The notes under the pieces are model-generated. The model saw only the letters and a program-made list of their open reading frames with translations. It was not told the DNA's origin and ran no database searches. Below are positions 17,063 to 57,729 of a stretch of 64,000 nucleotides of DNA, piece after piece. Source of the stretch: Tequatrovirus BCH953P2. The stretch's first letter is position 1. Every line of letters starts with the position of its first letter. The stretch lies in the sequence record OZ035785.1. One strand, written 5' to 3'. The translations under genes were made by a program, and so were the position numbers.

Positions 17063-17348
17063 ATCGGTGTTTACAATGACGACATTTATAACGAAGATTA
17101 CTAGTCTGCCAATGAACTAATTGTACCTGTTCAGTACCACACTCAGGACAATTAGGAACGTTTTTAGAAGCCCTTTCACGACGTTCAACCATGACCATTA
17201 CAGAATCCCAATTAACAGGAGGGCTATAATCATCACAACCATGAATCTTTCCACGCATTTCCAGATCGTCTTCTTCACCAGCCATAATAATTTTAATTAG
17301 ACTAGAATTACTTGAAGCTGCAATGTCTTCTAATAGACGCTTTTTCAT
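17034..17348 (-). CDS. Zinc-ribbon protein (nrdC.2 position)
   Basis: 104 aa; paired cysteines CPECGTEQ...CRHCKHRF. Confidence 0.45.
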
Positions 17349-39493: not shown

Positions 39494-40048
39494 TTACCGG
39501 TAGCGACCCGGTTTCTCATTTGGTATTTCAAATTGTGTAGATTTAGTATCTAATTTTTTAACTATGGAACTTATGTCATGAAAGAAAAACCATTCACCAT
39601 TTATATGGTCCTGATTATAAATGCTGTGCATATATTTTTCAAGTTCTACTGCATCCTGGGAATATCTAAATGATACTATTTTAAAACTTTTAAACGGTGA
39701 AAATGTATTTGCTGTTATAACTCTAACATCAGGTTCTATACTTCTTCCTATTTTATAATAATTAGGATTTGTAGTATCTACCATTATGTATACGAAAGCC
39801 TGTCGATAGCTTTTTTCTATATCAAATTCATCTTTAAATTTCAAAAGATTTAGGGCGGCAGTCCTACAAAATACTTTCCATTTTGACAAGCGTTTGGCTT
39901 CAGTCATAGAAAAGAATTTTTTCTTATCTGTTATTTTAAGAAAAGCAACATTTTCAATTAGTTCTTGTGTTATTTCAAAATTACCATGGTATATTAATCC
40001 AGCTTTTATAGCCAAATTAATTTGGTCCCAGTCTACATCACTTCTCAT
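39494..40048 (-). CDS. GIY-YIG-like (T5orf172-type) domain protein embedded beside the tRNA genes
   Basis: 184 aa; central FVYIMVDTTNPNYYKIGRS followed by E and YNQDHINGEWFFF resembles the GIY-YIG/T5orf172 core; T4 carries the homing endonuclease segB in this neighbourhood. Confidence 0.45.
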   Translation of the reverse strand: MRSDVDWDQINLAIKAGLIYHGNFEITQELIENVAFLKITDKKKFFSMTEAKRLSKWKVFCRTAALNLLKFKDEFDIEKSYRQAFVYIMVDTTNPNYYKIGRSIEPDVRVITANTFSPFKSFKIVSFRYSQDAVELEKYMHSIYNQDHINGEWFFFHDISSIVKKLDTKSTQFEIPNEKPGRYR

Positions 40049-40069
40049 AATATTATTCTCTCAATAATT

Positions 40070-40146
40070 TGGTCAGGGTGAAAGGATTCTAACCTTTAAC
40101 CTGCGGTTTAGAGGACCGCTACTCTATACAATTGAGTTACACCCCG
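40070..40146 (-). tRNA. tRNA-like element, anticodon UCU (Arg) if folded as tRNA; atypical
   Basis: Hand fold: acceptor CGGGGTG/CACCCTG, anticodon stem GCGGT/ACCGC, loop CCUCUAA, T arm AAAGG-TTAGAAT-CCTTT, 3-prime CCA encoded; D loop lacks GG and position 33 is C. Confidence 0.35.
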
Positions 40147-40272
40147 TAATTAGTTCACAGCAATACCTACTCCAACAATCAAGATGTCTTCACACGAAAT
40201 TAAGAGAAGTGTGATCAGTTCAACCCCTATAATCGCGTCAAGTAGATATTAATGTGACAACTGTCACAAGTT

Positions 40273-40347
40273 TGGCGGACATGCATGGATTCGAACCATG
40301 GACCAATTGATTAACAGTCAACTGCTCTACCACTGAGCTACACATCC
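40273..40347 (-). tRNA. tRNA-Asn (anticodon GUU)
   Basis: Hand fold of reverse complement GGATGTGTAGCTCAGTGGTAGAGCAGTTGACTGTTAATCAATTGGTCCATGGTTCGAATCCATGCATGTCCGCCA; loop CUGUUAA; CCA encoded. Confidence 0.7.
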
Positions 40348-40351
40348 AAAT

Positions 40352-40438
40352 TGGTGGGGAGTGGTGGAGTCGAACCACCCGAGTCGCAATGACAATGAAT
40401 TTACAGTCCACCCCGCTACCCCTACCGGATAACTCCCC
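40352..40438 (-). tRNA. tRNA-Tyr (anticodon GUA), long variable arm
   Basis: Acceptor GGGGAGT/ACTCCCC, loop CUGUAAA, long variable arm, T arm GGTGG-TTCGACT-CCACC, CCA encoded; 5-prime end lies in a C12 run. Confidence 0.6.
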
Positions 40439-40458
40439 CCCCCCCCTAATTCTTAATT

Positions 40459-40533
40459 TGGTGGCCCTGGGTGGAATTGAACCACCATCTGGCGATTATG
40501 AGTCGCTTGCTTGAACCTTCCAGCTACAGGGCC
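40459..40533 (-). tRNA. tRNA with CAU anticodon (Ile2 lysidine-type or Met)
   Basis: Acceptor GGCCCTG/CAGGGCC, anticodon loop CUCAUAA, T arm GGTGG-TTCAATT-CCACC, CCA encoded. Confidence 0.6.
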
Positions 40534-40534
40534 T

Positions 40535-40610
40535 TGGTGCTGATTGACGGAATCGAACCGCCGACCTTCTCATTACAAGTGAGTTGCTCTACCTACTGAG
40601 CTAAATCAGC
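40535..40610 (-). tRNA. tRNA-Thr (anticodon UGU)
   Basis: Acceptor GCTGATT/AATCAGC, D arm GCTC-AGTAGGTA-GAGC, loop CUUGUAA, CCA encoded. Confidence 0.7.
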
Positions 40611-40615
40611 AAAAC

Positions 40616-40705
40616 TGGCGGAGGCGATAGGATTTGAACCTATGAGTCGCCGGAGCGACTGCCGGTTTTCAAGACCGGTGCATTAAACCACTCTGCCACG
40701 CCTCC
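40616..40705 (-). tRNA. tRNA-Ser (anticodon UGA), long variable arm
   Basis: Acceptor GGAGGCG/CGCCTCC, anticodon stem CCGGT/ACCGG with loop CUUGAAA, long variable arm, CCA encoded. Confidence 0.75.
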
Positions 40706-40707
40706 AG

Positions 40708-40781
40708 TCTCCGCGGCAGGATTTGAACCTACGACATTCTGCTCCCAAAGCAGACGCTCTACCAAACTGAGCTACACGGAG
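40708..40781 (-). tRNA. tRNA-Pro (anticodon UGG)
   Basis: Acceptor CTCCGTG/CGCGGAG, anticodon stem TCTGC/GCAGA, loop UUUGGGA; CCA not encoded; 2 nt spacer to tRNA-Ser. Confidence 0.7.
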
Positions 40782-40791
40782 TAAATTAAAT

Positions 40792-40865
<74 letters not shown>

Positions 40866-40870
40866 AAATT

Positions 40871-40957
40871 TGGTGCGAGAAGTGGGACTCGAACCCACAA
40901 GGAAATCATTCCGCAGCATTTTAAGTGCTGTGCCTTTACCAATTTGACCATTCTCGC
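40871..40957 (-). tRNA. tRNA-Leu (anticodon UAA), long variable arm
   Basis: Acceptor GCGAGAA/TTCTCGC, anticodon stem CAGCA/TGCTG with loop CUUAAAA, long variable arm, CCA encoded. Confidence 0.75.
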
Positions 40958-40958
40958 G

Positions 40959-41031
40959 CTGGGAATAAAGGACTCGAACCTTTGCATCTAGCAGTCAAAG
41001 TGCTATGCCTTACCAACTTGGCTAATTCCCA
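40959..41031 (-). tRNA. tRNA-Gln (anticodon UUG)
   Basis: Reverse complement begins TGGGAATTAGCCAAGTTGGTAAGGCATAGCACTTTGACTGCTAG, agreeing with remembered T4 tRNA-Gln; CCA not encoded; 1 nt spacer to tRNA-Leu. Confidence 0.8.
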
Positions 41032-41128
41032 ATTATTAACAAAGGCTCTCAAACAAGAACCCTTGATGATAGAGGGTATTAATCAGTGCGGTATGAGTTA
41101 ATAATAACAAATAATTCTTAAAGCATAT

Positions 41129-41416
41129 TTACCATTTATGATGATACATACTTACGATGCATTCAAGACCTAAAGGATTCTTGAAAATATCATATTCAAG
41201 AGGACCTTTTTCTGTTTCAATAAAGAAATCAAAATTTACTGTATTAAATTTACGGTCTTCCTTTACTAATTTAACTTGAGAAGATGAACGGTCAATGTAA
41301 ACCTTTTCAACTTCAAAACATGTTAAAACGCCATAATCATCAATCAAGGCTTTAGCTGCGTCTTGATCATATTTATATCCATTTTCAATGGATGATACTT
41401 TAGCATAAAGAATCAT
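41129..41416 (-). CDS. Hypothetical protein
   Basis: 95 aa ORF downstream of the tRNA cluster. Confidence 0.4.
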   Translation of the reverse strand: MILYAKVSSIENGYKYDQDAAKALIDDYGVLTCFEVEKVYIDRSSSQVKLVKEDRKFNTVNFDFFIETEKGPLEYDIFKNPLGLECIVSMYHHKW

Positions 41417-41800: not shown

Positions 41801-41986
41801 CTATTCACCTTTAGAAATTTTATCCATAACGATAGCAATTAAACCAATTAAAAATGCTACTACAAGTGAAAAAACATTTTCTGCTGTAGTCAATAATCCG
41901 CATATAAATCCAACAAACATTGAAAAACTAAAAGCGGAAGCAGAAATTGCAATAGCAACATTTCGAATTAATTCACAACGTTTCAT
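41801..41986 (-). CDS. Small membrane protein
   Basis: 61 aa, hydrophobic (FSMFVGFICGLLTTAENVFSLVVAFLIGLIAIV); early-promoter-like motif at 42015-42044. Confidence 0.4.
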   Translation of the reverse strand: MKRCELIRNVAIAISASAFSFSMFVGFICGLLTTAENVFSLVVAFLIGLIAIVMDKISKGE

Positions 41987-42014
41987 TTTATTCTCCTCAG
42001 TAGTAGATAGGGTA

Positions 42015-42044
42015 ATAGTATCACTACCCTATCTAAAAGTAAAC
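42015..42044 (-). promoter_or_regulatory. Early sigma70-type promoter
   Basis: Minus-strand GTTTAC-N18-TACTAT just downstream of the ipI stop. Confidence 0.5.
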
Positions 42045-42278
42045 TTATTTTTTACGAAAAATTGATTTATTTTCTGCTGCCCATTTTTCAATAACTGCAG
42101 CCGGACCAGTAACAACAATTTTATCACCGTAATCTTCTGCGGCGAGTTGACCGAAATTATCTAATGCATCACGAAGAACTCCATGAGGCATTTCACCCAT
42201 TTTATCTTTCTTGCCAGTGTAAATAAACTCAACTTTTACATCAGAAGATTCAGCGATAAATTCTTTAAACGTTTTCAT
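42045..42278 (-). CDS. ipI: Internal protein I (head-packaged anti-restriction protein)
   Basis: 77 aa beginning MKTFKEFIAES (capsid-targeting consensus), positioned before 57B/57A as in T4; early promoter at 42309-42338. Confidence 0.6.
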   Translation of the reverse strand: MKTFKEFIAESSDVKVEFIYTGKKDKMGEMPHGVLRDALDNFGQLAAEDYGDKIVVTGPAAVIEKWAAENKSIFRKK

Positions 42279-42308
42279 TTTATTTTCCTAATTAATTTTG
42301 ATGAGATA

Positions 42309-42338
42309 ATAGTATCACTACCTCATCAGCATGTAAAC
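42309..42338 (-). promoter_or_regulatory. Early sigma70-type promoter for ipI
   Basis: Minus-strand GTTTAC, 18 nt spacer, TACTAT, about 30 nt upstream of the ipI start. Confidence 0.55.
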
Positions 42339-42350
42339 AACTTTATGAAA

Positions 42351-43047
<697 letters not shown>

Positions 43048-43048
<1 letters not shown>

Positions 43049-43773
43049 TATAGTACCTTTAGTGTATTTTTAATTTTAGAAAAAAGTTCTTCAAGAGAAC
43101 CATCGTTTGTAATTACTAAATCGCCATCACGAATTGGCAATCCAGCTTCTGTAATATGTGTATCATTGGATTTTTGACCAGGACGAACTACATGAATTAC
43201 TGTAGCACCCATCGCCCTAGCCGCATCCATTTCATGATCTTGACGAGTATCAGGAACGATATAATAATCATAACCTGAGTTAAATTTATCAAGATAATCT
43301 AAAGCAAATAATTTTACCCAGTACATGCGATCGAAGTTATTAACAATCAAATCCGTACCTAGGGCTTGCATCAGACGACGGACTGACCATTGATCTTCAA
43401 TATTATTTATAACGTCAATAATCTTGTTAAACGCTACGGAATTAACTGATTCTTGTCCTTCGTCATCAAAAACAAACACACCTTTAATTGGGCTTTTACC
43501 ATTAAGATAGCAAAATGCTTGTTCCATAATCGTGATTACTTCTGATTTAGTCAGATTTAAATTAGTCTCACGATCATAGTCAATTCCTTCAAACTCTTTA
43601 CGAGTTAAGCAAGGATAGTCAGTGTTTTCTGCAAATACGCCCCATGCATAAGCCAATGCATCCTTAATAGGACCAGCAAGTTGGTATTTAACTGCAGAAT
43701 AATTGCTCATGATAAAATCAGCAGTAGTATCTTTTCCACTACGCTTTACACCGCTTAAAAAGATTAGTTTCAT
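43048..43773 (-). CDS. 1: Deoxynucleoside monophosphate kinase
   Basis: 241 aa from MKLIFLSGVKRSGKDTTADFI (P-loop), matching remembered T4 gp1; ORF track has a longer upstream version. Confidence 0.9.
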
Positions 43774-43822
43774 GTGTTTCTCCTCAAATTTAATTAAGAT
43801 TATAACACACAAAACTGAAGCA

Positions 43823-44353
43823 TTAAACTTCTGCTATAATTTTTCCATCTTTTTCTACTTGAAAATACGTATAAGGAATCGTTGCAGTACATACTAAAGC
43901 TGGGTCTGAATCTTCCGTATAGCTAAATTCTACTTCAGATAGGTCAGAAACCCAAGGCTTATAAAAATTTATTGACATCACGATTTCAGTTTTGCTATTA
44001 TCTAAAATGTAAAGCGTAATGTACTCAGGACCTGTTTTTTGGGCAGTATTTTCACCTGTAAGATAGTTGCTAGTTCCTAGCATCCATTCATACATTCCTA
44101 TCCACGACTTAAGTTCTTCATCAACTATAAATCTCACGATGAGTGGATCGTACTCAAATGTAGCACCCGGTCGTTGTGCTCGACCTAGTCCAAACGGCCC
44201 AGTCACGGTATCAGTAACAGGTATTCTAATTCCTGGAATAGGAACTGACTGAGCATTTAAAGTAAAAGCAGATGTAGTATTACTGTGTGGTATTGATACT
44301 ACAAAGTTAGTTGTATTTGCTTGGTTAAAAATTTGTTGCAGAGCTTGCGACAT
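43823..44353 (-). CDS. 3: Tail completion / sheath terminator gp3
   Basis: 176 aa from MSQALQQIFNQANTTNFVVSIP; T4 gene order 1-3-2-4. Confidence 0.8.
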   Translation of the reverse strand: MSQALQQIFNQANTTNFVVSIPHSNTTSAFTLNAQSVPIPGIRIPVTDTVTGPFGLGRAQRPGATFEYDPLIVRFIVDEELKSWIGMYEWMLGTSNYLTGENTAQKTGPEYITLYILDNSKTEIVMSINFYKPWVSDLSEVEFSYTEDSDPALVCTATIPYTYFQVEKDGKIIAEV

Positions 44354-44459
44354 ATATTCCTCATAATGCTTTATAATTGTTGGTGGTATAATGGGTCTAA
44401 GTCCCTTCCATTCAATTCCATTTAGAAAAAACAACAGAAAAGAATGGAAGATAATAGAA

Positions 44460-45284
44460 TTAAATATTTGACCAGACTTTGTTTGCAGAGAAACGTTTTC
44501 CTTTTGAAACGAACTGCTGAAGTGGCATCAACACAACGTTCGCCCAGTCTTTCGGGGCGATTTCAACAAGGCTACCCATAATATTACCAGGTATATATGC
44601 CTTAATCATTTGGTCTGCACCCCTAAATCCTTTCACTTGACTCCAATCAATTTTTAATTTCGTTTTATTAGTAATAGTAGGTGTATTTGCATATTGCTTT
44701 AAAAGCTCTTCTAGGAATTGCTGACGAGCTTTAGGTGGAATATAGTGCAAGTTTAATCCGTACATTAAATTATGCTTACCTAAACCAAGGTAAATTATCA
44801 AAGGAAATTTATCCCAGTAAGGAAGAGTTTCCTTGTGTTTAGCATCATAAGCAAAAGCATATATTCGTCCCGGCTGCGGGCGAACAACTTTATGTCCTTT
44901 TACTTGCTTAATAGTTTCAGCAAACCACTTTCTGGTTTTATTATTAATTGCTGCACCTTCATTACGAATTTTATCGCGCAATGTTTGCCTGAATGAATTT
45001 ATCATAAGCAGTTGTCTTTCTTGCTTATTGAGTTTATTCATTGGTTTTGATTCAAGTTTTTGAATCTTTTCAGCCGTTTTAATTCCTGAAGCATATTTTG
45101 ACATTGCCGAAGTAAACGTGGAGTATTTGATTCCTCTTTCTTCAGCAAATTGCTTTCCTGTCATTCCTTTTGCTTTGGCCTTTTTATATTCAAGACCTAT
45201 TTGAATCCATTTCTTTTCGTTTAATGATTGCTTAACCTTTGGAACTTGGGGAGTGCTTTCATTAATTATTTGAAAAATAGCCAT
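44460..45284 (-). CDS. 2: DNA end-protector protein gp2
   Basis: 274 aa ORF in the T4 gene 2 position. Confidence 0.8.
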
Positions 45285-45736
45285 TATGCCCCCTTAAAGC
45301 CAAGAGCTCGTAATCCATCTTCTGTTAGAATTCTAAATTTTATTCCACGCTTTTCAGCTAAAGATTGCGCTGCTTTCCATTTGTCGGTATTAACGGAATA
45401 TGTATAAATTTCATTCATAAATCTTTTCTTCGCTGCGGTTGTTAGATGCGCTGGTTTAACTGGTGGTTGTGTTTCTTTTTTAGGTTTTATTTCAATAAAA
45501 AATTCTTGTCCAGAAGAATCTTTCATCCAAATATCCATGAAGTATCTACGTTTTTTCCCTTCTGCATTACAAAAATAAGGAATTACTGCTGTTTCACTAC
45601 CCCATGCAATAATTTCTGGATTTTTATCTAACCATTCAAAAAAGAATTTTTCCCAATTTGATCTATACGTAATTTTTTTAGGGTCACCTCTATACTTTGA
45701 TATATTTTTAGGAACCCATTTTCCAGAATATGCCAT
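45284..45736 (-). CDS. 4: Head completion protein gp4
   Basis: 150 aa; minus-strand late promoter 27 nt upstream. Confidence 0.8.
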
Positions 45737-45747
45737 TGGATTCTCCT

Positions 45748-45755
45748 TATAAATA
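45748..45755 (+). promoter_or_regulatory. Late promoter TATAAATA for gene 53
   Basis: Exact TATAAATA about 28 nt upstream of the gene 53 ATG. Confidence 0.7.
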
Positions 45756-45762
45756 GATAATA

Positions 45763-45770
45763 TATTTATA
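45763..45770 (-). promoter_or_regulatory. Late promoter TATAAATA (minus strand) for genes 4-2-3
   Basis: Plus-strand TATTTATA about 27 nt upstream of the gene 4 start; divergent partner of the gene 53 promoter. Confidence 0.65.
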
Positions 45771-45783
45771 AACAGGAGGGCCC

Positions 45784-46374
45784 ATGCTCTTTACATTTTT
45801 TGATCCGATTGAATATGCGGCCAAAACGGTGAATAAAAACGCGCCGACTATTCCTATGACAGATATTTTTAGAAACTATAAAGACTATTTTAAACGCGCT
45901 CTTGCGGGATACCGCTTACGTACTTATTATATCAAAGGTTCACCACGCCCGGAAGAATTAGCAAATACTATATATGGAAATCCACAGTTGTATTGGGTTT
46001 TATTGATGTGTAATGATAATTATGATCCGTATTATGGATGGATTACTTCGCAAGAAGCTGCTTATCAAGCATCTATACAAAAATACAAAAATGTAGGTGG
46101 AGACCAAATAGTATATCATGTGAATGAGAACGGTGAAAAATTTTATAATTTAATATCATACGATGATAATCCATATGTTTGGTATGATAAAGGTGATAAA
46201 GCTAGAAAATATCCTCAATATGAAGGAGCACTTGCTGCTGTTAATACGTATGAAGATGCTGTTCTTGAAAATGAAAAACTTCGTCAAATAAAAATAATAG
46301 CAAAATCAGACATTAATTCATTTATGAACGACCTTATACGTATAATGGAGAAATCTTATGGAAATGATAAGTAA
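45784..46374 (+). CDS. 53: Baseplate wedge protein gp53
   Basis: 196 aa; plus-strand late promoter TATAAATA at 45748-45755; first gene of the plus-strand baseplate block. Confidence 0.85.
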   Translation: MLFTFFDPIEYAAKTVNKNAPTIPMTDIFRNYKDYFKRALAGYRLRTYYIKGSPRPEELANTIYGNPQLYWVLLMCNDNYDPYYGWITSQEAAYQASIQKYKNVGGDQIVYHVNENGEKFYNLISYDDNPYVWYDKGDKARKYPQYEGALAAVNTYEDAVLENEKLRQIKIIAKSDINSFMNDLIRIMEKSYGNDK

Positions 46375-48085
46375 TAACCTTAATTGGTTTGTTGGTGTTG
46401 TTGAAGATAGAATGGACCCATTAAAATTAGGTCGTGTTCGTGTTCGTGTGGTTGGTCTGCATCCACCTCAAAGAGCACAAGGTGATGTAATGGGTATTCC
46501 AACTGAAAAATTACCATGGATGTCAGTTATTCAACCTATAACTTCTGCAGCAATGTCTGGAATTGGAGGTTCTGTTACTGGACCGGTAGAAGGAACTAAA
46601 GTTTATGGTCATTTTTTAGACAAATGGAAAACTAACGGAATTGTCCTTGGCACGTATGGTGGAATAGTTCGCGAAAAACCGAATAGACTTGAAGGATTTT
46701 CTGACCCAACCGGGCAGTATCCTAGACGTTTAGGAAATGATACTAACGTACTAAACCAAGGCGGAGAAGTAGGATATGATTCCTCTTCTAATATTATCCA
46801 AGATAGTAACCTAGACACCGCAATAAATCCCGATGATAGACCACTATCAGAGATTCCAACCGATGATAATCCAAATATGTCAATGGCTGAAATGCTTCGC
46901 CGTGATGAAGGATTAAGACTAAAAGTTTATTGGGATACCGAAGGATATCCGACAATTGGTATTGGTCATCTTATCATGAAGCAGCCAGTTCGTGATATGG
47001 CTCAAATTAATAAAGTTTTATCGAAACAAGTTGGTCGTGAAATTACAGGAAATCCAGGTTCTATTACAATGGAAGAAGCGGTAACTTTATTTGAACGTGA
47101 TTTAGCTGATATGCAACGTGACATTAAATCACATTCTAAAGTAGGACCAGTCTGGCAAGCTGTCAACCGTTCTCGTCAAATGGCGTTAGAAAATATGGCA
47201 TTTCAGATGGGTGTTGGCGGTGTAGCTAAATTTAACACAATGTTAACTGCTATGTTAGCAGGAGATTGGGAAAAAGCATATAAAGCCGGTCGTGATTCAT
47301 TGTGGTATCAACAAACAAAAGGCCGTGCATCCCGTGTTACTATGATTATTCTTACGGGAAATTTGGAATCATATGGTGTTGAAGTGAAAACCCCAGCTAG
47401 GTCTCTATCAGCAATGGCTGCTACTGTAGCTAAATCTTCTGACCCTGCTGATCCTCCTATTCCAAATGACTCGAGAATTTTATTCAAAGAACCAGTTTCT
47501 TCATATAAAGGTGAATATCCTTATGTGCATACAATGGAAACTGAAAGCGGACATATTCAGGAATTTGATGATACCCCTGGGCAAGAACGATATAGATTAG
47601 TTCATCCAACTGGAACTTATGAAGAAGTATCACCGTCAGGAAGAAGAACAAGAAAAACTGTTGATAATTTGTATGATATAACCAACGCTGATGGTAATTT
47701 TTTGGTAGCCGGTGATAAAAAGACTAACGTCGGTGGTTCAGAAATTTATTATAACATGGATAATCGTCTTCACCAGATAGATGGAAGCAATACAATATTT
47801 GTGCGCGGCGATGAAACTAAGACGGTTGAAGGTAATGGAACTATCCTAGTTAAAGGTAATGTTACCATTGTAGTTGAAGGTAATGCTGACATTACAGTTA
47901 AAGGAGATGCTACCACTTTAGTTGAAGGAAATCAAACTAATACAGTAAATGGAAATCTTTCTTGGAAAGTTGCTGGGACAGTTGATTGGGACGTTGGTGG
48001 TGATTGGACAGAAAAAATGGCATCTATGAGTTCTATTTCATCTGGTCAATACACAATTGATGGATCGAGGATTGACATTGGCTAA
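46358..48085 (+). CDS. 5: Baseplate hub / tail lysozyme gp5
   Basis: 575 aa; central lysozyme domain MAEMLRRDEGLRLKVYWDTEGYPTIGIGHL parallels the e lysozyme; C-terminal VxGxxxxxV beta-helix repeats. Confidence 0.95.
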   Translation: MEMISNNLNWFVGVVEDRMDPLKLGRVRVRVVGLHPPQRAQGDVMGIPTEKLPWMSVIQPITSAAMSGIGGSVTGPVEGTKVYGHFLDKWKTNGIVLGTYGGIVREKPNRLEGFSDPTGQYPRRLGNDTNVLNQGGEVGYDSSSNIIQDSNLDTAINPDDRPLSEIPTDDNPNMSMAEMLRRDEGLRLKVYWDTEGYPTIGIGHLIMKQPVRDMAQINKVLSKQVGREITGNPGSITMEEAVTLFERDLADMQRDIKSHSKVGPVWQAVNRSRQMALENMAFQMGVGGVAKFNTMLTAMLAGDWEKAYKAGRDSLWYQQTKGRASRVTMIILTGNLESYGVEVKTPARSLSAMAATVAKSSDPADPPIPNDSRILFKEPVSSYKGEYPYVHTMETESGHIQEFDDTPGQERYRLVHPTGTYEEVSPSGRRTRKTVDNLYDITNADGNFLVAGDKKTNVGGSEIYYNMDNRLHQIDGSNTIFVRGDETKTVEGNGTILVKGNVTIVVEGNADITVKGDATTLVEGNQTNTVNGNLSWKVAGTVDWDVGGDWTEKMASMSSISSGQYTIDGSRIDIG

Positions 48086-48614
48086 TATACTTCCAATGAG
48101 CGCTGATTTAGGAGAATCCATGGAAGGTTCTTCTATCGACGTCACCTTTACCGCTCAATTAGAAACAGGTGAAACGTTAGTATCTATAAATATAACTAGT
48201 TACGAAGAAACTCCTGGGGTTTTAGTAGAAGAAAATCGCTTATATGGAACATATGAATCTGTATTTGGTTTCGGAAATGACGCGTTAAAATATCGTTTAG
48301 GTGATGAATTTAAAACTGCTGCTTCATGGGAAGAACTTCCTACTGATTCTGATACTCAGTTGTATTTGTGGAAAGCTCCTCAGAATCTCCAGAAGACATT
48401 CACTTACGAAGTAACATTAATATATGACTACCAAGAACAGAGTGAATCTGGAGGTTCTGGCAGTAATTCTAGGTCATCTTCTGATATTACTGAACCGACG
48501 AATCCTCCTGCTCCAGTAAGAAAAACTCTCGTTAAAAATTATACTAAAACTATAGTTGGAAATTGGAGTCGTTGGGCTAATAAATTGAGAAGCTATGTGT
48601 ATGAGAGGTCATAA
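48057..48614 (+). CDS. 5.1: gp5.1, start uncertain
   Basis: 185 aa ORF overlapping the gene 5 end; T4 gene order 5-5.1-5.4-6. Confidence 0.6.
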   Translation: MMDRGLTLANILPMSADLGESMEGSSIDVTFTAQLETGETLVSINITSYEETPGVLVEENRLYGTYESVFGFGNDALKYRLGDEFKTAASWEELPTDSDTQLYLWKAPQNLQKTFTYEVTLIYDYQEQSESGGSGSNSRSSSDITEPTNPPAPVRKTLVKNYTKTIVGNWSRWANKLRSYVYERS

Positions 48615-48908
48615 ATGCCAGGATTAAGTTATGATAAGTGTGTTACTGCTGGACATGAAGCATGGCCTCCAACAGTTGTGAATGCTACACAAAGTAAAGT
48701 ATTCACTGGAGGAATTGCTGTTCTCGTAGCAGGCGATCCAATTACAGAACATACAGAAATTAAAAAGCCATATGAAACACATGGCGGAGTGACACAACCT
48801 AGAACTTCTAAGGTATATGTCACTGGAAAGAAAGCTGTTCAAATGGCTGATCCAATATCATGCGGTGATACTGTGGCTCAGGCATCATCTAAAGTATTCA
48901 TTAAATAG
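48615..48908 (+). CDS. 5.4: Spike-tip protein gp5.4 (PAAR-like)
   Basis: 97 aa ORF with Cys/His residues, immediately before gene 6. Confidence 0.75.
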
Positions 48909-48916
48909 GATTTAAA

Positions 48917-50899
48917 ATGGCAAATACCCCTGTAAATTATCAATTAACAAGAACAGCAAATGCTATTCCCGAGATATTCGTCGGGGGTACGTTTGCTGAA
49001 ATAAAACAAAACCTCATTGAATGGCTTAATGGCCAAAATGAATTTTTGGATTATGATTTTGAAGGCTCAAGATTAAACGTTCTGTGCGACCTTTTGGCTT
49101 ATAATACATTATACATTCAGCAGTTTGGTAATGCTGCTGTGTATGAAAGCTTTATGCGTACTGCTAACTTACGAAGTTCAGTTGTTCAAGCTGCGCAAGA
49201 TAACGGATATTTACCTACTTCAAAATCCGCTGCGCAGACCGAAATTATGTTAACATGCACCGACGCATTGAATAGGAATTACATTACAATTCCTCGCGGA
49301 ACTCGCTTTTTAGCATATGCAAAAGATACTTCTGTTAATCCATATAACTTCGTTTCTACCGAAGACGTTATTGCTATTCGTGATAAAAATAACCAATATT
49401 TTCCGCGTTTAAAATTGGCCCAGGGACGTATAGTAAGAACTGAAATCATTTATGATAAATTAACACCTATTATCATTTATGATAAAAATATTGATAGAAA
49501 CCAGGTTAAATTATATGTTGATGGAGCGGAATGGATTAACTGGACGAGAAAGTCAATGGTTCATGCTGGTTCAACATCAACGATTTACTATATGCGTGAA
49601 ACTATTGATGGAAACACTGAATTTTATTTTGGCGAAGGTGAAATTTCTGTTAATGCTTCTGAAGGAGCTTTGACCGCTAATTATATCGGAGGTCTTAAAC
49701 CTACTCAGAACTCTACAATTGTTATTGAGTACATCAGTACTAATGGTGCTGACGCGAACGGAGCAGTCGGATTTTCATACGCAGATACATTAACAAATAT
49801 AACTGTCATCAATATTAATGAAAATCCAAACGATGACCCAGATTTTGTTGGGGCAGATGGCGGCGGTGATCCAGAAGATATTGAGCGTATTCGCGAATTG
49901 GGTACTATTAAACGCGAAACCCAGCAACGCTGCGTAACTGCAACTGACTATGATACATTCGTTTCAGAAAGATTTGGTTCTATTATTCAAGCAGTTCAGA
50001 CTTTCACTGATTCTACTAAACCTGGTTATGCATTTATTGCTGCTAAACCTAAATCAGGTCTGTATCTAACTACTGTACAACGTGAAGATATTAAAAATTA
50101 TCTCAAAGACTATAATTTAGCTCCTATTACGCCATCAATTATTTCTCCTAATTATCTTTTTATTAAGACTAATTTAAAAGTCACATATGCTTTAAATAAG
50201 CTACAAGAATCCGAACAGTGGCTTGAAGGTCAAATAATTGATAAAATTGATCGCTATTATACCGAAGATGTAGAAATTTTTAACTCGTCTTTTGCCAAGT
50301 CTAAGATGTTAACTTATGTAGATGATGCAGATCATTCTATAATTGGCTCATCGGCGACAATTCAAATGGTACGTGAAGTACAAAACTTCTATAAAACGCC
50401 TGAAGCAGGTATTAAATACAATAATCAAATAAAAGATCGTTCTATGGAATCTAATACGTTTTCATTTAATTCTGGGCGAAAGGTTGTAAATCCTGATACT
50501 GGTTTAGAAGAAGATGTATTATACGACGTTCGCATAGTATCAACAGACCGAGATTCTAAAGGAATTGGTAAAGTTATTATTGGTCCATTTGCTTCTGGTG
50601 ATGTTACAGAAAATGAAAACATTCAGCCGTATACAGGCAATGATTTTAACAAATTAGCAAATTCTGATGGACGCGACAAATACTATGTTATCGGTGAAAT
50701 AAATTATCCAGCTGACATGATTTATTGGAATATCGCTAAAATTAATTTAACATCTGAAAAATTTGAGGTTCAGACTATTGAATTATATTCTGACCCAACT
50801 GATGATGTTATCTTTACTCGCGATGGTTCACTGATTGTATTTGAAAATGACTTACGTCCACAATACTTAACTATCGATTTGGAGCCTATATCACAATGA
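48917..50899 (+). CDS. 6: Baseplate wedge protein gp6
   Basis: 660 aa, T4 length and position. Confidence 0.9.
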   Translation: MANTPVNYQLTRTANAIPEIFVGGTFAEIKQNLIEWLNGQNEFLDYDFEGSRLNVLCDLLAYNTLYIQQFGNAAVYESFMRTANLRSSVVQAAQDNGYLPTSKSAAQTEIMLTCTDALNRNYITIPRGTRFLAYAKDTSVNPYNFVSTEDVIAIRDKNNQYFPRLKLAQGRIVRTEIIYDKLTPIIIYDKNIDRNQVKLYVDGAEWINWTRKSMVHAGSTSTIYYMRETIDGNTEFYFGEGEISVNASEGALTANYIGGLKPTQNSTIVIEYISTNGADANGAVGFSYADTLTNITVININENPNDDPDFVGADGGGDPEDIERIRELGTIKRETQQRCVTATDYDTFVSERFGSIIQAVQTFTDSTKPGYAFIAAKPKSGLYLTTVQREDIKNYLKDYNLAPITPSIISPNYLFIKTNLKVTYALNKLQESEQWLEGQIIDKIDRYYTEDVEIFNSSFAKSKMLTYVDDADHSIIGSSATIQMVREVQNFYKTPEAGIKYNNQIKDRSMESNTFSFNSGRKVVNPDTGLEEDVLYDVRIVSTDRDSKGIGKVIIGPFASGDVTENENIQPYTGNDFNKLANSDGRDKYYVIGEINYPADMIYWNIAKINLTSEKFEVQTIELYSDPTDDVIFTRDGSLIVFENDLRPQYLTIDLEPISQ

Positions 50900-53800
50900 C
50901 AGTAAAAGCACCTTCAGTCACTAGTCTCAGAATTTCCAAGTTATCCGCAAATCAGGTGCAAGTACGCTGGGATGACGTTGGTGCTAATTTCTACTATTTT
51001 GTAGAAATCGCTGAGACAAAAACAAACTCGGGGGAAAATCTCCCGAGTAATCAATACAGATGGATTAACTTAGGATATACAGCAAATAATAGTTTCTTTT
51101 TTGATGATGCTGATCCATTAACAACATACATTATTAGAGTAGCTACAGCTGCGCAAGATTTTGAGCAGTCTGATTGGATTTATACCGAAGAGTTTGAAAC
51201 TTTTGCTACAAATGCTTATACATTTCAAAACATGATTGAAATGCAATTAGCTAATAAATTCATTCAGGAAAAATTTACTCTTAATAATTCTGATTATGTT
51301 AATTTTAATAATGACACTATAATGGCTGCATTGATGAATGAATCATTTCAATTCAGCCCATCATATGTTGATGTTTCATCAATCAGTAATTTTATTATTG
51401 GTGAAAATGAGTATCATGAAATACAAGGTTCCATTCAGCAAGTATGTAAGGATATTAACCGTGTTTATTTGATGGAATCAGAAGGGATTCTATATCTTTT
51501 TGAGCGTTATCAGCCTGTAGTTAAAGTATCTAATGATAAAGGACAAACCTGGAAAGCTGTAAAGCTCTTCAATGACCGTGTAGGATATCCTTTATCTAAG
51601 ACAGTATATTACCAATCTGCGAACACAACATACGTTCTAGGATACGACAAGATTTTCTATGGCCGCAAATCTACTGATGTTAGATGGTCAGCCGATGATG
51701 TCAGATTTAGTTCCCAGGATATAACATTTGCTAAACTTGGCGACCAGTTACATTTAGGATTTGATGTAGAAATCTTCGCTACTTATGCTACTTTACCAGC
51801 GAATGTATACCGTATAGCTGAGGCTATTACTTGCACGGATGATTATATCTATGTTGTTGCCAGAGATAAAGTTAGATACATAAAAACGAGTAATGCACCC
51901 ATAGATTCTGATCCATTATCCCCAACATATTCGGAAAGACTTTTTGAACCTGACACAATGACTATAACCGGAAATCCTAAAGCAGTATGCTATAAAATGG
52001 ATTCTGTTGGTGATAAAGTTTTTGCTCTTATTATTGGTGAAGTTGAAACATTAAATGCCAATCCGAGAACTTCAAAAATAATTGATTCCGCTGATAAAGG
52101 AATATATGTTTTAAATCATGACGAAAAGACATGGAAAAGAGTTTTCGGTAATACCGAAGAAGAAAGAAGACGTATTCAACCCGGATATGCGAATATGTCA
52201 ACTGATGGTAAATTAGTTTCTCTGTCTTCGAGTAATTTTAAATTTTTAAGTGATAATGTTGTTAATGACCCTGAAACTGTGGTGAAATATCAGTTAATCG
52301 GTGCTGTTAAATATGAATTTCCTCGTGAATGGTTAACTGATAAGCATTATCATATGATGGCATTTATAGCGGATGAAACATCTGATTGGGAGACTTTTAC
52401 TCCTCAACCAATGAAATACTACGCAGAACCATTCTTTAACTGGTCTAAAAAATCTAACACGCGTTGTTGGATAAACAACTCTGATAGAGTTGTAGTAGTT
52501 TATGCTGATTTAAAATACACCAAAGTTATAGAAAATATTCCGGAAACATCACCAGATAGATTAGTTCATGAATACTGGGATGATGGTGATTGCACTATAG
52601 TAATGCCAAATGTTAAATTCACTGGATTTAAAAAATACGCATCAGGAATGCTTTTCTACAAAGCCTCCGGTGAAATAATTTCTTACTATGATTTTAACTA
52701 TCGTGTGAGAGATACAGTAGAAATTATTTGGAAACCTACTGAAGTATTTTTGAAAGCATTTTTACAAAACCAAGAGCATGAGACTCCTTGGTCACCAGAA
52801 GAAGAGCGTGGACTAGCTGACCCCGATTTAAGACCATTAATTGGCACAATGATGCCTGATTCTTATTTGCTACAGGATTCGAATTTTGAAGCATTTTGCG
52901 AAGCATATATTCAGTATCTTTCTGATGGATATGGAACTCAATACAATAATTTACGAAATTTAATTCGTAACAAATATCCACGAGAAGAGCATGCATGGGA
53001 ATATTTGTGGTCAGAGATATATAAAAGAAACATTTATTTAAATGCTGATAAACGCGATGCTGTTGCGAGATTCTTTGAATCACGTAGCTACGATTTTTAT
53101 TCTACTAAAGGAATTGAAGCATCATACAAGTTTCTTTTTAAAGTTCTTTATAATGAAGAAGTTGAAATTGAAATTGAATCTGGGGCTGGTACTGAATATG
53201 ATATAATCGTTCAATCTGATTCTTTGACTGAAGATTTAGTAGGACAAACGATTTATACAGCTACAGGAAGATGTAATGTTACTTATATAGAAAGAAGCTA
53301 TTCTAATGGTAAATTGCAATGGACCGTAACTATTCATAATCTTTTGGGACGATTAATTGCTGGTCAAGAAGTTAAAGCAGAAAGACTCCCTAGTTTTGAA
53401 GGCGAAATTATTCGTGGCGTTAAAGGAAAGGATTTGCTTCAAAACAATATAGACTATATTAATAGAAGTAGATCATACTATGTAATGAAAATTAAATCCA
53501 ATTTACCTTCTTCCCGCTGGAAATCTGACGTTATTCGTTTTGTTCATCCAGTAGGATTTGGATTTATAGCAATTACCCTTTTAACAATGTTTATTAATGT
53601 TGGTTTAACTCTTAAACATACAGAGACTATAATTAATAAATACAAAAACTATAAATGGGATTCTGGATTGCCTACTGAATACGCTGATAGAGTAGCTAAA
53701 TTAACTCCAGCTGGTGAAATTGAACATGATCCAGTAACAGGCGAAGCAATTTATGAACCTGGTCCAAAGGCTGGTGTAAAATATCCTCTTCCTGATGACT

Positions 53801-53994
53801 ATAATGCTGAAAATAATAATTCAATATTTCAAGGTCAATTGCCGTCTGAACGACGTAAATTAATGAGTCCTTTATTTGATGCATCTGGAACAACATTTGC
53901 GCAATTTAGAGATTTAGTTAATAAACGTCTAAAAGATAATATAGGAAATCCAAGAGACCCTGAAAATCCAACACAGGTTAAAATAGATGAATGA
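50896..53994 (+). CDS. 7: Baseplate wedge protein gp7
   Basis: 1032 aa, T4 length and position; start overlaps gene 6 stop. Confidence 0.9.
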   Translation: MTVKAPSVTSLRISKLSANQVQVRWDDVGANFYYFVEIAETKTNSGENLPSNQYRWINLGYTANNSFFFDDADPLTTYIIRVATAAQDFEQSDWIYTEEFETFATNAYTFQNMIEMQLANKFIQEKFTLNNSDYVNFNNDTIMAALMNESFQFSPSYVDVSSISNFIIGENEYHEIQGSIQQVCKDINRVYLMESEGILYLFERYQPVVKVSNDKGQTWKAVKLFNDRVGYPLSKTVYYQSANTTYVLGYDKIFYGRKSTDVRWSADDVRFSSQDITFAKLGDQLHLGFDVEIFATYATLPANVYRIAEAITCTDDYIYVVARDKVRYIKTSNAPIDSDPLSPTYSERLFEPDTMTITGNPKAVCYKMDSVGDKVFALIIGEVETLNANPRTSKIIDSADKGIYVLNHDEKTWKRVFGNTEEERRRIQPGYANMSTDGKLVSLSSSNFKFLSDNVVNDPETVVKYQLIGAVKYEFPREWLTDKHYHMMAFIADETSDWETFTPQPMKYYAEPFFNWSKKSNTRCWINNSDRVVVVYADLKYTKVIENIPETSPDRLVHEYWDDGDCTIVMPNVKFTGFKKYASGMLFYKASGEIISYYDFNYRVRDTVEIIWKPTEVFLKAFLQNQEHETPWSPEEERGLADPDLRPLIGTMMPDSYLLQDSNFEAFCEAYIQYLSDGYGTQYNNLRNLIRNKYPREEHAWEYLWSEIYKRNIYLNADKRDAVARFFESRSYDFYSTKGIEASYKFLFKVLYNEEVEIEIESGAGTEYDIIVQSDSLTEDLVGQTIYTATGRCNVTYIERSYSNGKLQWTVTIHNLLGRLIAGQEVKAERLPSFEGEIIRGVKGKDLLQNNIDYINRSRSYYVMKIKSNLPSSRWKSDVIRFVHPVGFGFIAITLLTMFINVGLTLKHTETIINKYKNYKWDSGLPTEYADRVAKLTPAGEIEHDPVTGEAIYEPGPKAGVKYPLPDDYNAENNNSIFQGQLPSERRKLMSPLFDASGTTFAQFRDLVNKRLKDNIGNPRDPENPTQVKIDE

Positions 53995-54991
53995 TTCAAG
54001 TGTTATCTATCGTGCGATAGTTACTTCAAAATTTAGAACAGAAAAAATGTTGAATTTTTATAATTCAATTGGAAGTGGTCCGGATAAAAACACTATCTTT
54101 ATCACATTTGGAAGATCAGAACCGTGGTCATCAAATGAAAATGAGGTGGGCTTTGCCCCACCTTATCCAACCGATTCTGTATTAGGCGTAACTGACATGT
54201 GGACGCATATGATGGGAACAGTAAAAGTTCTTCCATCAATGCTTGATGCAGTTATTCCTCGTAGAGATTGGGGAGATACTCGATATCCTGATCCATACAC
54301 ATTTAGAATTAATGACATTGTAGTGTGTAACTCAGCTCCTTACAACGCTACTGAATCCGGCGCAGGCTGGTTAGTATATCGTTGTTTAGACGTTCCTGAT
54401 ACTGGAATGTGCTCAATAGCATCTTTAACTGATAAGGATGAATGCCTTAAATTAGGCGGAAAATGGACACCTTCTGTTAGATCAATGACTCCTCCTGAAG
54501 GTCGAGGAGATGCTGAAGGAACAATTGAACCCGGAGACGGGTATGTGTGGGAATATCTATTTGAGATTCCGCCTGATGTATCTATAAATAGATGCACGAA
54601 TGAATATATCGTGGTTCCTTGGCCTGAGGAATTAAAAGAAGACCCGACTAGATGGGGGTATGAAGATAATCTCACTTGGCAACAAGATGATTTTGGATTA
54701 ATTTACCGTGTTAAGGCAAATACTATCCGTTTTAAAGCATATTTAGATTCAGTTTATTTTCCTGAAGCTGCATTGCCAGGAAATAAAGGATTTAGACAAA
54801 TATCAATAATCACGAATCCTCTTGAAGCTAAAGCTCATCCAAATGACCCAAACGTTAAAGCTGAAAAGGATTATTATGATCCGGAAGATTTAATGAGGCA
54901 TTCGGGTGAAATGATTTATATGGAAAATAGGCCACCTATTATTATGGCAATGGATCAGACAGAAGAAATCAATATTCTGTTTACATTTTAA
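53987..54991 (+). CDS. 8: Baseplate wedge protein gp8
   Basis: 334 aa; followed by a terminator hairpin. Confidence 0.9.
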   Translation: MNDSSVIYRAIVTSKFRTEKMLNFYNSIGSGPDKNTIFITFGRSEPWSSNENEVGFAPPYPTDSVLGVTDMWTHMMGTVKVLPSMLDAVIPRRDWGDTRYPDPYTFRINDIVVCNSAPYNATESGAGWLVYRCLDVPDTGMCSIASLTDKDECLKLGGKWTPSVRSMTPPEGRGDAEGTIEPGDGYVWEYLFEIPPDVSINRCTNEYIVVPWPEELKEDPTRWGYEDNLTWQQDDFGLIYRVKANTIRFKAYLDSVYFPEAALPGNKGFRQISIITNPLEAKAHPNDPNVKAEKDYYDPEDLMRHSGEMIYMENRPPIIMAMDQTEEINILFTF

Positions 54992-54997
54992 ATTAAG

Positions 54998-55019
54998 GGA
55001 GCCCATGGGCTCCCTTTTT
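54998..55019 (+). terminator. Rho-independent terminator after gene 8
   Basis: GGGAGCCC-ATG-GGCTCCC hairpin followed by TTTTTC. Confidence 0.7.
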
Positions 55020-55022
55020 CTT

Positions 55023-55030
55023 TATAAATA
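55023..55030 (+). promoter_or_regulatory. Late promoter TATAAATA for gene 9
   Basis: Exact TATAAATA 25 nt upstream of the gene 9 ATG, after the gene 8 terminator. Confidence 0.7.
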
Positions 55031-55054
55031 CTATAAACTCATAAGGAAACCGCT

Positions 55055-55921
55055 ATGTTCATTCAAGAACCAAAGAAATTGATTGATACCGGCGAAATTG
55101 GTAACGCTTCTACTGGTGATATCTTATTCGACGGTGGTAATAAAATTAATAGTGATTTTAACGCAATTTATAATGCGTTTGGCGATCAACGTAAAATGGC
55201 AGTAGCAAATGGCACCGGAGCAGATGGTCAAATTATCCATGCTACTGGATATTATCAAAAACACTCTATTACAGAGTACGCAACTCCAGTGAAAGTTGGC
55301 ACTAGACATGATATTGATACCTCTACTGTAGGTGTTAAAGTTATCATTGAAAGAGGCGAACTTGGCGATTGTGTTGAATTTATTAACTCTAATGGATCAA
55401 TATCAGTTACTAATCCTTTGACAATTCAAGCTATTGATTCAATTAAAGGTGTTTCAGGTAATTTAGTAGTAACTAGCCCATATAGTAAAGTAACTTTACG
55501 CTGTATTTCATCTGATAATTCCACGTCGGTTTGGAATTATTCTATTGAAAGTATGTTTGGACAAAAGGAATCACCGGCTGAAGGTACATGGAATATTTCT
55601 ACATCTGGATCAGTTGATATTCCACTATTTCATCGCACTGAATACAATATGGCTAAATTGCTAGTTACATGCCAATCGGTAGATGGAAGAAAAATTAAAA
55701 CAGCAGAAATAAATATTCTTGTGGATACTGTCAATTCAGAGGTAATTTCTTCTGAATATGCTGTCATGCGAGTTGGGAATGAAACCGAAGAAGACGAAAT
55801 CGCTAATATTGCATTTAGTATTAAAGAAAATTATGTAACGGCGACTATAAGTTCTTCAACTGTCGGTATGAGAGCAGCAGTTAAAGTTATCGCTACGCAG
55901 AAAATCGGGGTGGCTCAATAA
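55055..55921 (+). CDS. 9: Baseplate protein gp9 (long tail fibre socket)
   Basis: 288 aa; late promoter TATAAATA at 55023-55030. Confidence 0.9.
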   Translation: MFIQEPKKLIDTGEIGNASTGDILFDGGNKINSDFNAIYNAFGDQRKMAVANGTGADGQIIHATGYYQKHSITEYATPVKVGTRHDIDTSTVGVKVIIERGELGDCVEFINSNGSISVTNPLTIQAIDSIKGVSGNLVVTSPYSKVTLRCISSDNSTSVWNYSIESMFGQKESPAEGTWNISTSGSVDIPLFHRTEYNMAKLLVTCQSVDGRKIKTAEINILVDTVNSEVISSEYAVMRVGNETEEDEIANIAFSIKENYVTATISSSTVGMRAAVKVIATQKIGVAQ

Positions 55922-57729
55922 TGAAACAAAATATTAATATCGGTAATGTTGTAGATGATGGTACCGGTGACTACCTGCGTAAAGGTGGTATAAAAATAAA
56001 TGAAAACTTTGATGAGCTTTATTATGAACTTGGTGATGGTGATGTTCCATATTCAGCCGGTGCCTGGAAAACTTATAATGCTTCATCAGGACAAACATTA
56101 ACAGCAGAATGGGGAAAATCATACGCTATTAATACATCTTCTGGAAGAGTGACTATAAATCTTCCAAAGGGTACAGTTAATGATTACAACAAGGTAATTA
56201 GAGCTAGAGACGTATTTGCTACATGGAACGTCAACCCAGTTACACTAGTAGCTGCTTCCGGCGATACGATTAAAGGGTCTGCAGTACCAGTTGAAATTAA
56301 TGTTCAATTCAGCGATTTAGAACTAGTGTATTGTGCCCCAGGACGTTGGGAATATGTCAAAAATAAACAAATTGACAAAATTACCAGTTCAGACATTAGT
56401 AATGTAGCTCGTAAAGAATTTTTAGTTGAAGTTCAAGGACAAACAGACTTTTTAGATGTTTTCCGTGGAACTAGTTATAATGTAAATAACATCAGAGTAA
56501 AACACCGCGGTAACGAATTGTATTACGGTGATGTATTTAGCGAAAACAGCGATTTTGGCTCTCCGGGCGAAAATGAAGGAGAACTAGTTCCTCTTGATGG
56601 ATTTAATATTCGATTAAGACAGCCTTGTAATATTGGTGACACTGTTCAAATTGAAACATTTATGGATGGTGTGTCGCAGTGGAGAAGTTCATATACAAGA
56701 CGTCAAATTAGATTGTTAGATTCAAAATTAACGTCAAAAACTTCTTTAGAAGGAAGTATTTACGTTACTGATTTATCAACAATGAAATCAATTCCGTTTT
56801 CTGCCTTTGGATTAATTCCAGGAGAACCTATTAATCCTAATTCTCTTGAGGTTCGTTTTAATGGAATTTTACAAGAATTGGCTGGAACAGTTGGAATGCC
56901 ATTATTTCATTGTGTTGGTGCCGATTCAGACGATGAAGTAGAATGCTCTGTTTTAGGTGGAACTTGGGAACAATCTCATACCGATTATTCAGTTGAAACT
57001 GATGAAAACGGCATACCAGAAATTTTACATTTCGATAGAGTATTTGAGCATGGTGACATTATCAATATCACCTGGTTTAATAATGATTTGGGTACATTAT
57101 TAACAAAAGACGAGATTATTGATGAAACTGATAATCTTTATGTATCGCAAGGGCCGGGAGTAGATATTTCTGGTGATGTAAATTTAACAGACTTCGATAA
57201 AATTGGTTGGCCAAATGTAGAAGCAGTTCAATCTTATCAACGCGAATTTAATGCTGTTTCAAATATCTTTGATACGATTTATCCTATTGGAACTATATAT
57301 GAAAACGCTGTTAATCCAAACAACCCTGTTACATATATGGGATTCGGCTCATGGAAATTATTTGGGCAAGGAAAAGTTTTAGTTGGATGGAATGAAGATA
57401 TTTCGGATCCGAATTTTGCTCTAAATAACAACGATTTAGATTCTGGTGGAAATCCTTCGCATACTGCGGGTGGAACAGGTGGTTCTACTTCTGTTACATT
57501 GGAAAATGCTAATCTTCCTGCAACTGAAACAGATGAAGAAGTTCTAATAGTTGATGAAAATGGATCAGTCATTGTTGGTGGGTGTCAATACGATCCAGAT
57601 GAATCCGGTCCAATTTATACTAAATACCGTGAAGCTAAAGCATCTACTAACTCTACTCACACTCCGCCAGCATCAATAACTAACATTCAACCATATATTA
57701 CAGTTTATCGTTGGATAAGGATTGCATAA
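55921..57729 (+). CDS. 10: Baseplate wedge / short tail fibre attachment protein gp10
   Basis: 602 aa; N-terminal module shared with gp9. Confidence 0.9.

Follow-up and report, generated by a model that had tools for sequence, protein, structure and literature searches.

The stretch of DNA analysed here, which is 64 kb long and will be referred to in the following as the window, contains a cluster of ten tRNA genes on the minus strand (40070-41031). According to ARAGORN and Rfam, the genes follow each other in the order Gln, Leu, Gly, Pro, Ser, Thr, Met, Tyr, Asn and Arg. The cluster is homologous to the tRNA region of Tequatrovirus, the T4/T6-like coliphages, with matches in 841 phage records and best identities of 97-98%. 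Within it, tRNA-Tyr(GUA) occupies 40352-40438 (minus strand). ARAGORN and an alignment with E. coli tyrT describe it as a class II tRNA of the T6 type with a long variable arm, A73, an encoded CCA and an atypical D-arm. Upstream lies a tRNA with a CAT anticodon (40459-40533, minus strand), which is annotated as Met or Ile in relatives. Downstream, tRNA-Asn(GUU) (40273-40347, minus strand) begins 4 nt past the CCA of tRNA-Tyr. Directly downstream of tRNA-Arg follows a gene for a 184-aa protein with a T5orf172/MUG113 domain, which is GIY-YIG-superfamily-like (39494-40048, minus strand). In other relatives, this part of the cluster is occupied by the GIY-YIG endonuclease gene segB in place of the T5orf172/MUG113 gene; segB is absent from the window.

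A mosaic cassette boundary is found at ~40462, where the 3' end of tRNA-Met lies; the tract described below is ~16 nt away. In the case of L104, L107, L108, L110 and L112, homology to the window ends at 40462 and segB is found there in place of Tyr-Asn. Some relatives show tRNA-Met followed directly by segB, with no Tyr. The order in T6 is Tyr-segB-Arg, and that of the window is Tyr-Asn-Arg followed by the T5orf172/MUG113 gene.

The tRNA with the CAT anticodon at 40459-40533 is called tRNA-Met in most records and tRNA-Ile in REP2, and as in T4 it may be an Ile2 tRNA that depends on lysidine. Sutha-like phages carry a divergent replacement allele of this gene. Rfam additionally reported 'Plastid-ycf2 5'UTR' matches on the antisense strand of tRNA-Thr/tRNA-Met (L071, 1547-1696; 30-41 bits against a threshold of 65.7). 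These and the tmRNA matches in the cluster were rejected as antisense or partial tRNA look-alikes below threshold. A metagenome contig of 32.5 kb (L093; ENA ERZ13617683 NODE_467) is 99.3% identical to 41943-58085 of the window. Its end lies ~0.9 kb beyond the right edge of the tRNA cluster and ~1.5 kb short of the tract, and this position near the tRNA region suggests strain heterogeneity or assembly breakage in that sample. Farther to the right, the GC skew flips its sign at ~45000-46500, being negative to the left and positive to the right. The flip falls where minus-strand genes give way to baseplate genes on the plus strand (gp53, gp5 onward).

At the 5' edge of tRNA-Tyr, the plus strand carries a run of twelve C's, CCCCCCCCCCCC, at 40435-40446, which is G12 in the RNA sense. 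The earlier note had described this homopolymer as supplying the GGGG of the tRNA-Tyr acceptor stem plus a leader of eight G's, and this description is exact. The gene ends given by ARAGORN (40352-40438) and Rfam (40355-40438) assign G1-G4 of the acceptor stem to 40435-40438. The eight extra G's, at 40439-40446 (minus strand), form positions -1 to -8 of the pre-tRNA-Tyr leader; in alignments they are present in no relative, and the nearest alleles have one extra G. A 12-nt spacer, AAUUAAGAAUUA (40447-40458, minus strand), separates the run from tRNA-Met/Ile2(CAU), with the mosaic boundary near 40462 being ~16 nt away. The tract is the sole C or G run longer than five in the window: C runs of length 4 occur 37 times, those of length 5 twice and that of length 12 once, and G runs reach a maximum length of 5. 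The five other C5/G5 runs of the window are not expanded. Over the window the G+C content is 0.32-0.40, and the expectation for a C 12-mer with one mismatch allowed was 0.00 in 100 dinucleotide-preserving shuffles. A role of the tract as promoter or terminator was dropped, as a scan of 39900-41300 returned no terminator-like site, and no promoter-like site near the tract.

The tRNA-Tyr gene itself is unusual within its cluster. The Rfam tRNA model (RF00005) matched 40355-40438 with 34.6 bits, just above the threshold of 29, and the neighbouring tRNAs scored 59-73 bits. In covariance models, the tRNA-Tyr genes of relatives scored 30.2 bits or fell below threshold, and that of KX130864 is classified as 'pseudo' by tRNAscan. 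Throughout the family the D-stem contains a conserved C.C mismatch. Infernal aligns the D-arm in an alternative, Sec-like register, and one compensatory change in the tRNA-Tyr of SE11 (T5-like) supports the canonical register. Homologues of this tRNA-Tyr were found in 1,284 phage records, including T5-like phages (Tequintavirus), Felixounavirus, Vequintavirus, Phapecoctavirus, Karamvirus and Jiaodavirus, and in ~200 records of E. coli phage-plasmids. Several anticodon-stem variants exist across the homologues (GUGGA/UCCAU, GUAGA/UCUAU, GCUGA/UCAGC, GCAGA/UCUGU and GGGGA/UCCCU). As such compensatory changes arose repeatedly across lineages, the comparison of sequences indicates that the tRNA-Tyr family is a constrained, functional RNA. 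Pseudogene decay was ruled out by these changes together with the conservation across genera. In T6, the tRNA-Tyr is expressed, and whether the phage escapes Septu, a nuclease that cleaves tRNA-Tyr, depends on the dosage of this tRNA (Chihara et al. 2026, PMC13096335).

Members of the family in unrelated phage groups all have the atypical D-arm, with scores near or below the thresholds of tRNA models. Non-mobilizable E. coli phage-plasmids of 90-110 kb (e.g. L100, NZ_CP022085.2, 8159-8405) carry a trio of Asn, Tyr and Thr tRNAs, and the phage-plasmid tRNA-Tyr is ~85% identical to the T-even copy. The 137.6-kb plasmid pRHB39-C03_2 (CP057073.1; L101, 460-558) has a cluster of seven tRNAs in which ARAGORN reports a 99-nt 'tRNA-???' with the four-base anticodon atcc, alongside a T-even-like tRNA-Tyr. 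The spread of the family over phage groups fits a horizontal transfer of a counter-defence tRNA.

To place the run length among relatives, the 5' edge of tRNA-Tyr was compared in ~40 related but distinct contigs (GenBank, ENA, Logan, IMG/VR and JGI). Among these, 39 sequences had G4 and six had G5, with none longer, and intermediate runs of 6-11 were absent from the ~40 contigs inspected. T6, NBG2 and four further contigs had G4 as well. In eleven homologues from other genera (at least seven) and from plasmids, the run did not exceed GGGG, and -1 was A, T or C. The six G5 contigs share the exact spacer of the window, AAGAAUUA, as well as the same anticodon-stem variant, and have a G at -1. Because of this shared spacer and variant, they can be regarded as the nearest alleles of the window, and since these nearest alleles are G5 with a G at -1, growth of the run seems to have already begun in this sub-lineage. 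With relatives having G4 or G5 only, the tract is neither conserved nor generally variable. The earlier note had set a slippage-prone tract that could vary in length against a homopolymer artefact; these are still the correct alternatives.

A wider survey was carried out with a degenerate pattern of 26 nt that demanded at least six C's at the tRNA-Tyr locus. It matched nothing in IMG/VR, in JGI metagenomes or in a GTDB set of one genome per species; with four C's, the pattern matched 8 and 15 loci. A gapped pattern scan of IMG/VR had returned mostly chance matches and was replaced by degenerate patterns of 24-26 nt. No other copy of the window allele was found in INPHARED phages, E. coli complete genomes or PLSDB plasmids. 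Likewise, no contig of the same strain spanning the tract was obtained via four flanking proteins or a 41-aa ORF across the tract. On the sequences compared, the tract thus appears as a private expansion, by seven bases relative to G5 or eight relative to G4, with no sampled intermediates.

The run is accompanied by changes within the tRNA. Compared to the nearest alleles, three substitutions lie within 27 nt downstream of the tract (RNA sense), and all of them are to G. The first, C13>G (40426, plus strand G>C), is private against 31 relatives and unique in the whole sampled tRNA family. The second, A18>G in the D-loop (40421, plus strand T>C), is a natural polymorphism, as G is also present in L068, L074, NBG2, REC and KP179. 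The third, U27>G at standard position 26 (40412, plus strand A>C), is private among T4-likes against 31 relatives, and G27 is also found in the phage-plasmid L100, in REC and in KP179. These three substitutions are the only differences to the tRNA-Tyr of T6 (84/87 identical). Read on the plus strand, each change extends a C run (CACC>CCCC, CCTC>CCCC, CG>CC and, for the tract itself, C5>C12). Comparison of the 3.5 kb surrounding the cluster with the 31 relatives showed no window-private changes apart from 40412, 40426 and the tract, all within 35 nt. A 37-nt query with all three substitutions had no megablast match in 50,697 phage records, and the window allele was present in none of the 1,284 phage records with this tRNA, where the closest reached at most 85/87. 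We estimate the probability that two of the substitutions match natural family states by chance at ~13% among G-adjacent sites. We had also considered that the three substitutions improve the tRNA structure, which rests on the Sec-like alignment of Infernal, where C13>G and U27>G look pair-forming. This argument was dropped because the change in SE11 speaks for the canonical register of the D-stem, where C13>G disrupts the C13-G23 pair.

To test the quality of the assembly, private differences were determined against REP2, 236Ecol005PP and UFV-AREG1 over the whole window, and at many local loci. Transitions accounted for 68% of the 503 private substitutions, and A>C and G>C together for 5%. 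Relative to the aligned relatives, the window had zero private deletions and no further homopolymer anomalies. Five other private insertion sites were short tandem or 1-3-base events outside homopolymers. Private insertions of in-frame length include a CAACCA tandem duplication (10792-10797), ACC (11489-11491) and TAA (17213-17215). Dense blocks of private substitutions are seen at ~3370-3485, 4917-4963, 10688-10784 and 21176-21228, as is typical of T-even mosaic patches. Several window proteins of 300-1000 aa are identical to database entries. Because of these exact protein matches and the lack of other homopolymer errors, the assembly does not resemble a noisy long-read consensus, and such a consensus on glucosyl-hmC DNA was ruled out as a general cause of the tract. 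A two-colour poly-G read end also fits poorly, since the sequence continues in register on both sides of the run and the scattered miscalls would be on the wrong side for a decaying G-strand read.

To describe possible consequences for the tRNA, the isolated spacer-Tyr-CCA segment was folded with ViennaRNA, which gives equilibrium predictions. The predicted probability of the acceptor stem was 0.98 for G4 and G5, 0.36 for G8 and 0.00 for G12. In the minimum-energy fold of G12, the G run is zipped onto CUCCACCACUCCCCACC, at -39 to -41 kcal/mol versus -32 to -34 kcal/mol for the tRNA-like fold, so that the misfold is predicted to be more stable by 5-8 kcal/mol. When the acceptor and T stems were enforced, C74/C75 were predicted to be 99% paired with leader G's at runs of at least six, and to be free at G4. 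Co-transcriptional folding of the T-arm could soften the global misfold, while the sequestration of the CCA should persist. Bacterial RNase P contacts the leader at -1 to -8 and prefers it unstructured; pairing of -1/-2 with 73/74 hinders the enzyme, which also requires the T stem-loop, a 12-bp stack of the acceptor and T stems and a 3' RCCA that is free (PMC8925977, PMC11143913). A predicted effect on precursor processing, as suggested by the earlier note, is thus backed by the modelled folds in combination with published RNase P rules.

Taken together, a possible sequence of events can be formulated. Replication slippage is the simplest origin of G12, and would have extended the G5 allele of the closest relatives. 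The setting would be a phage without mismatch repair of its own, with a tract that adjoins a recombination-prone cassette boundary, and break-induced recombination could also have contributed at this boundary near 40462. The T4 phage family does not rely on host mismatch repair either. In the polycistronic precursor, the eight extra G's would then sit at the leader contacts -1 to -8 of RNase P, where they would pair with C74/C75 of the encoded CCA and, at equilibrium, also with the C-rich 3' side of both the acceptor and the T stem over its whole length. Maturation of the 5' end would consequently be impaired or aberrant, and the output of tRNA-Tyr reduced or lost. Such a loss could be tolerated on ordinary hosts, because tRNA-Tyr matters mainly against host defences that cleave tRNA-Tyr, against which the loss would be costly. 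T4 tRNA genes are known to be dispensable on ordinary hosts. The G12 run itself would probably be highly unstable in length.

Overall, the evidence slightly favours a real private expansion over a local artefact. That G12 is a real, lineage-private slippage expansion in a natural-looking but divergent tRNA-Tyr allele has, in our estimation, about an even chance. This reading is favoured because the nearest alleles are already G5 in six contigs, because the assembly is otherwise clean with no private homopolymer indels elsewhere, and because the covariance score of the window allele is not below that of the relatives. The mosaic boundary ~16 nt away, with segB in other phages, points in the same direction, and so does, more modestly, the fact that two of the three G substitutions (G18 and G27) are natural family states. 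On the other side, the allele is a singleton, with no runs of at least six in three collections, no intermediates of 6-11 and no independent same-strain assembly found across the site. The linked private substitutions occur in 0 of the 1,284 phage records and are, together with the tract, the only private changes in 3.5 kb at a depth of 31. Two of the changes are of transversion types that are rare among the private substitutions, and all changes are toward the homopolymer base, as signal bleed in base calling would give. Finally, a lesion that destroys folding would be unexpected unless very recent, because tRNA-Tyr is conserved across genera with compensatory changes.

The main rival explanation is a local sequencing or assembly artefact, in which the true allele is G5 (or G4) and poor base calls became fixed in the consensus. 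We consider this a serious candidate, although its chance falls somewhat short of even. The artefact would have arisen in a C-rich and strongly structured segment laden with glucosyl-hydroxymethyl-C, where an over-called homopolymer was combined with miscalls toward the same base. Glucosyl-hmC reportedly hampers long-read sequencing of T-even DNA (PMC13096335). A unique allele lacking intermediates is what such an error would leave, and the packing of all private changes of 3.5 kb into 35 nt, the two private substitutions being transversions rare elsewhere in the window, and the harm to a conserved, functional tRNA are readily understood in the same way. All four differences enrich one base and lengthen C runs; this bias toward the homopolymer base is expected of an artefact and is also compatible with real change. 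However, the window is free of other homopolymer errors and of private frameshift-type indels, and many of its proteins match the database exactly. An over-call of +7 is far beyond the usual homopolymer error of +/-1-2, and the 'dark-cycle' poly-G read end of two-colour chemistry misfits a run with register kept on both sides and miscalls on the wrong side. That natural states of the family are matched by two out of three substitutions, at the chance level of ~13% given above, likewise speaks against miscalls.

Compared with these two readings, it is improbable that the G run and the substitutions are the scar of one recombination event at the cassette boundary. Such a scar could stem from a homing-endonuclease break misrepaired via G-rich microhomology, or from a patch co-converted from an unsampled, diverged tRNA-Tyr allele in which the run was already present. 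The boundary at ~40462 is only 16 nt off, segB, Tyr-segB and Tyr-Asn-Arg-T5orf172 architectures occur among relatives, and three substitutions plus an indel inside 35 nt fit a single patch, with G18 and G27 being present in other lineages. Nevertheless, a donor with G13 or a long run is absent from the 1,284 records and from three large collections, and gene conversion from a sampled donor is thereby ruled out. In addition, the sites matching the reported SegB motif (RAWTSGAAC) lie in T-arm sequences rather than at the 5' edge, T-even phages normally carry out homologous repair accurately, and the window has no segB.

Least probable, and to be given very little weight, is a selected functional element, be it a hypermutable ON/OFF or graded length switch acting on the maturation of a counter-defence tRNA via RNase P substrate quality, or an RNA/DNA G-quadruplex tuning maturation or transcription of tRNA-Tyr: the run length is within the range of known contingency tracts, the predicted acceptor stem is lost steeply with length (from G5 over G8 to G12), the minimum-energy fold computed with quadruplex terms has a leader G-quadruplex (-45.8 kcal/mol) and tRNA-Tyr dosage decides Septu escape in T6 (PMC13096335), but the tract is a singleton, with lengths of only 4-5 in ~40 contigs, no long run in the 11 homologues from at least seven genera and no second such tract in the window.

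In conclusion, G12 is a singleton homopolymer expansion or a local error, and its value hinges on read-level support. If the tract is real, it would be a natural experiment on a structured, G-rich 5' leader facing bacterial RNase P, and it would bear on the dispensability of the T-even tRNA-Tyr, a dosage-sensitive counter to tRNA-Tyr-cleaving defences (Septu, and retron-Eco7 for T5). In a phage lineage lacking mismatch repair, a real 12-nt G/C run would also act as a hot spot of slippage. If a length switch were true, short processable and long CCA-sequestering leaders would form a complement to the SegB-driven gene amplification of T6. If the tract is an artefact, a clean T-even assembly can hide a local error in a C-rich, structured tRNA gene with modified bases, which would be carried over into tRNA annotation.

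T4 is the classical system of homopolymer slippage (Streisinger). Like the slippage hot spots of T4, the tract is a mononucleotide run in a T-even genome, for which gain and loss of units are expected to rise with length. The T4 hot spots, however, are A/T runs of 5-6 in coding genes that were scored as frameshifts, whereas the window has a G/C run of 12 at the boundary of an RNA gene, at which slippage would be the presumed process. Contingency tracts of Campylobacter, Neisseria, Haemophilus and Helicobacter (PMC2823697) resemble the window in being G/C runs of at least eight that are placed to alter output. They differ in that several exist per genome, they are polymorphic among and within strains, and they act on reading frame or promoter spacing. 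The tract of the window is single, is non-polymorphic as sampled and would act on the folding of a tRNA precursor. As sampled, it is therefore not classed as a contingency tract, since it has the length of at least eight but neither the length polymorphism nor the multiplicity.

Regarding technical precedents, homopolymer and poly-G miscalls of two-colour Illumina sequencing (PMC11140927) similarly produce spurious G/C runs and substitutions near homopolymers. In contrast to the window, where +7/+8 is found in register within a clean assembly, they occur at read ends or amount to +/-1-2. A natural counterpart is the tRNA-Tyr of T6 beside segB (PMC13096335), which has, like the window, an upstream cluster of Gln-Leu-Gly...Thr-Met-Tyr. 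The T6 gene begins as AAUUA|GGGG, with no G leader and with segB directly downstream, whereas in the window the eight extra G's precede the gene, Asn-Arg-T5orf172 follows it and segB is missing. Finally, synthetic RNase P riboswitches on supF tRNA-Tyr (PMC8925977) and work on the interaction of RCCA with RNase P RNA (PMC11143913) show that cleavage drops or is misdirected when leader nucleotides are paired, as in G(-2):C74, or when the cleavage site is masked. The precedents for a leader-sequestering block of RNase P are thus synthetic only, and the window would correspond to them by analogy. In the riboswitches, the block is brought about by engineered upstream hairpins, whereas in the window C74/C75, at the 3' end of the tRNA itself, are the predicted pairing partners of the leader.
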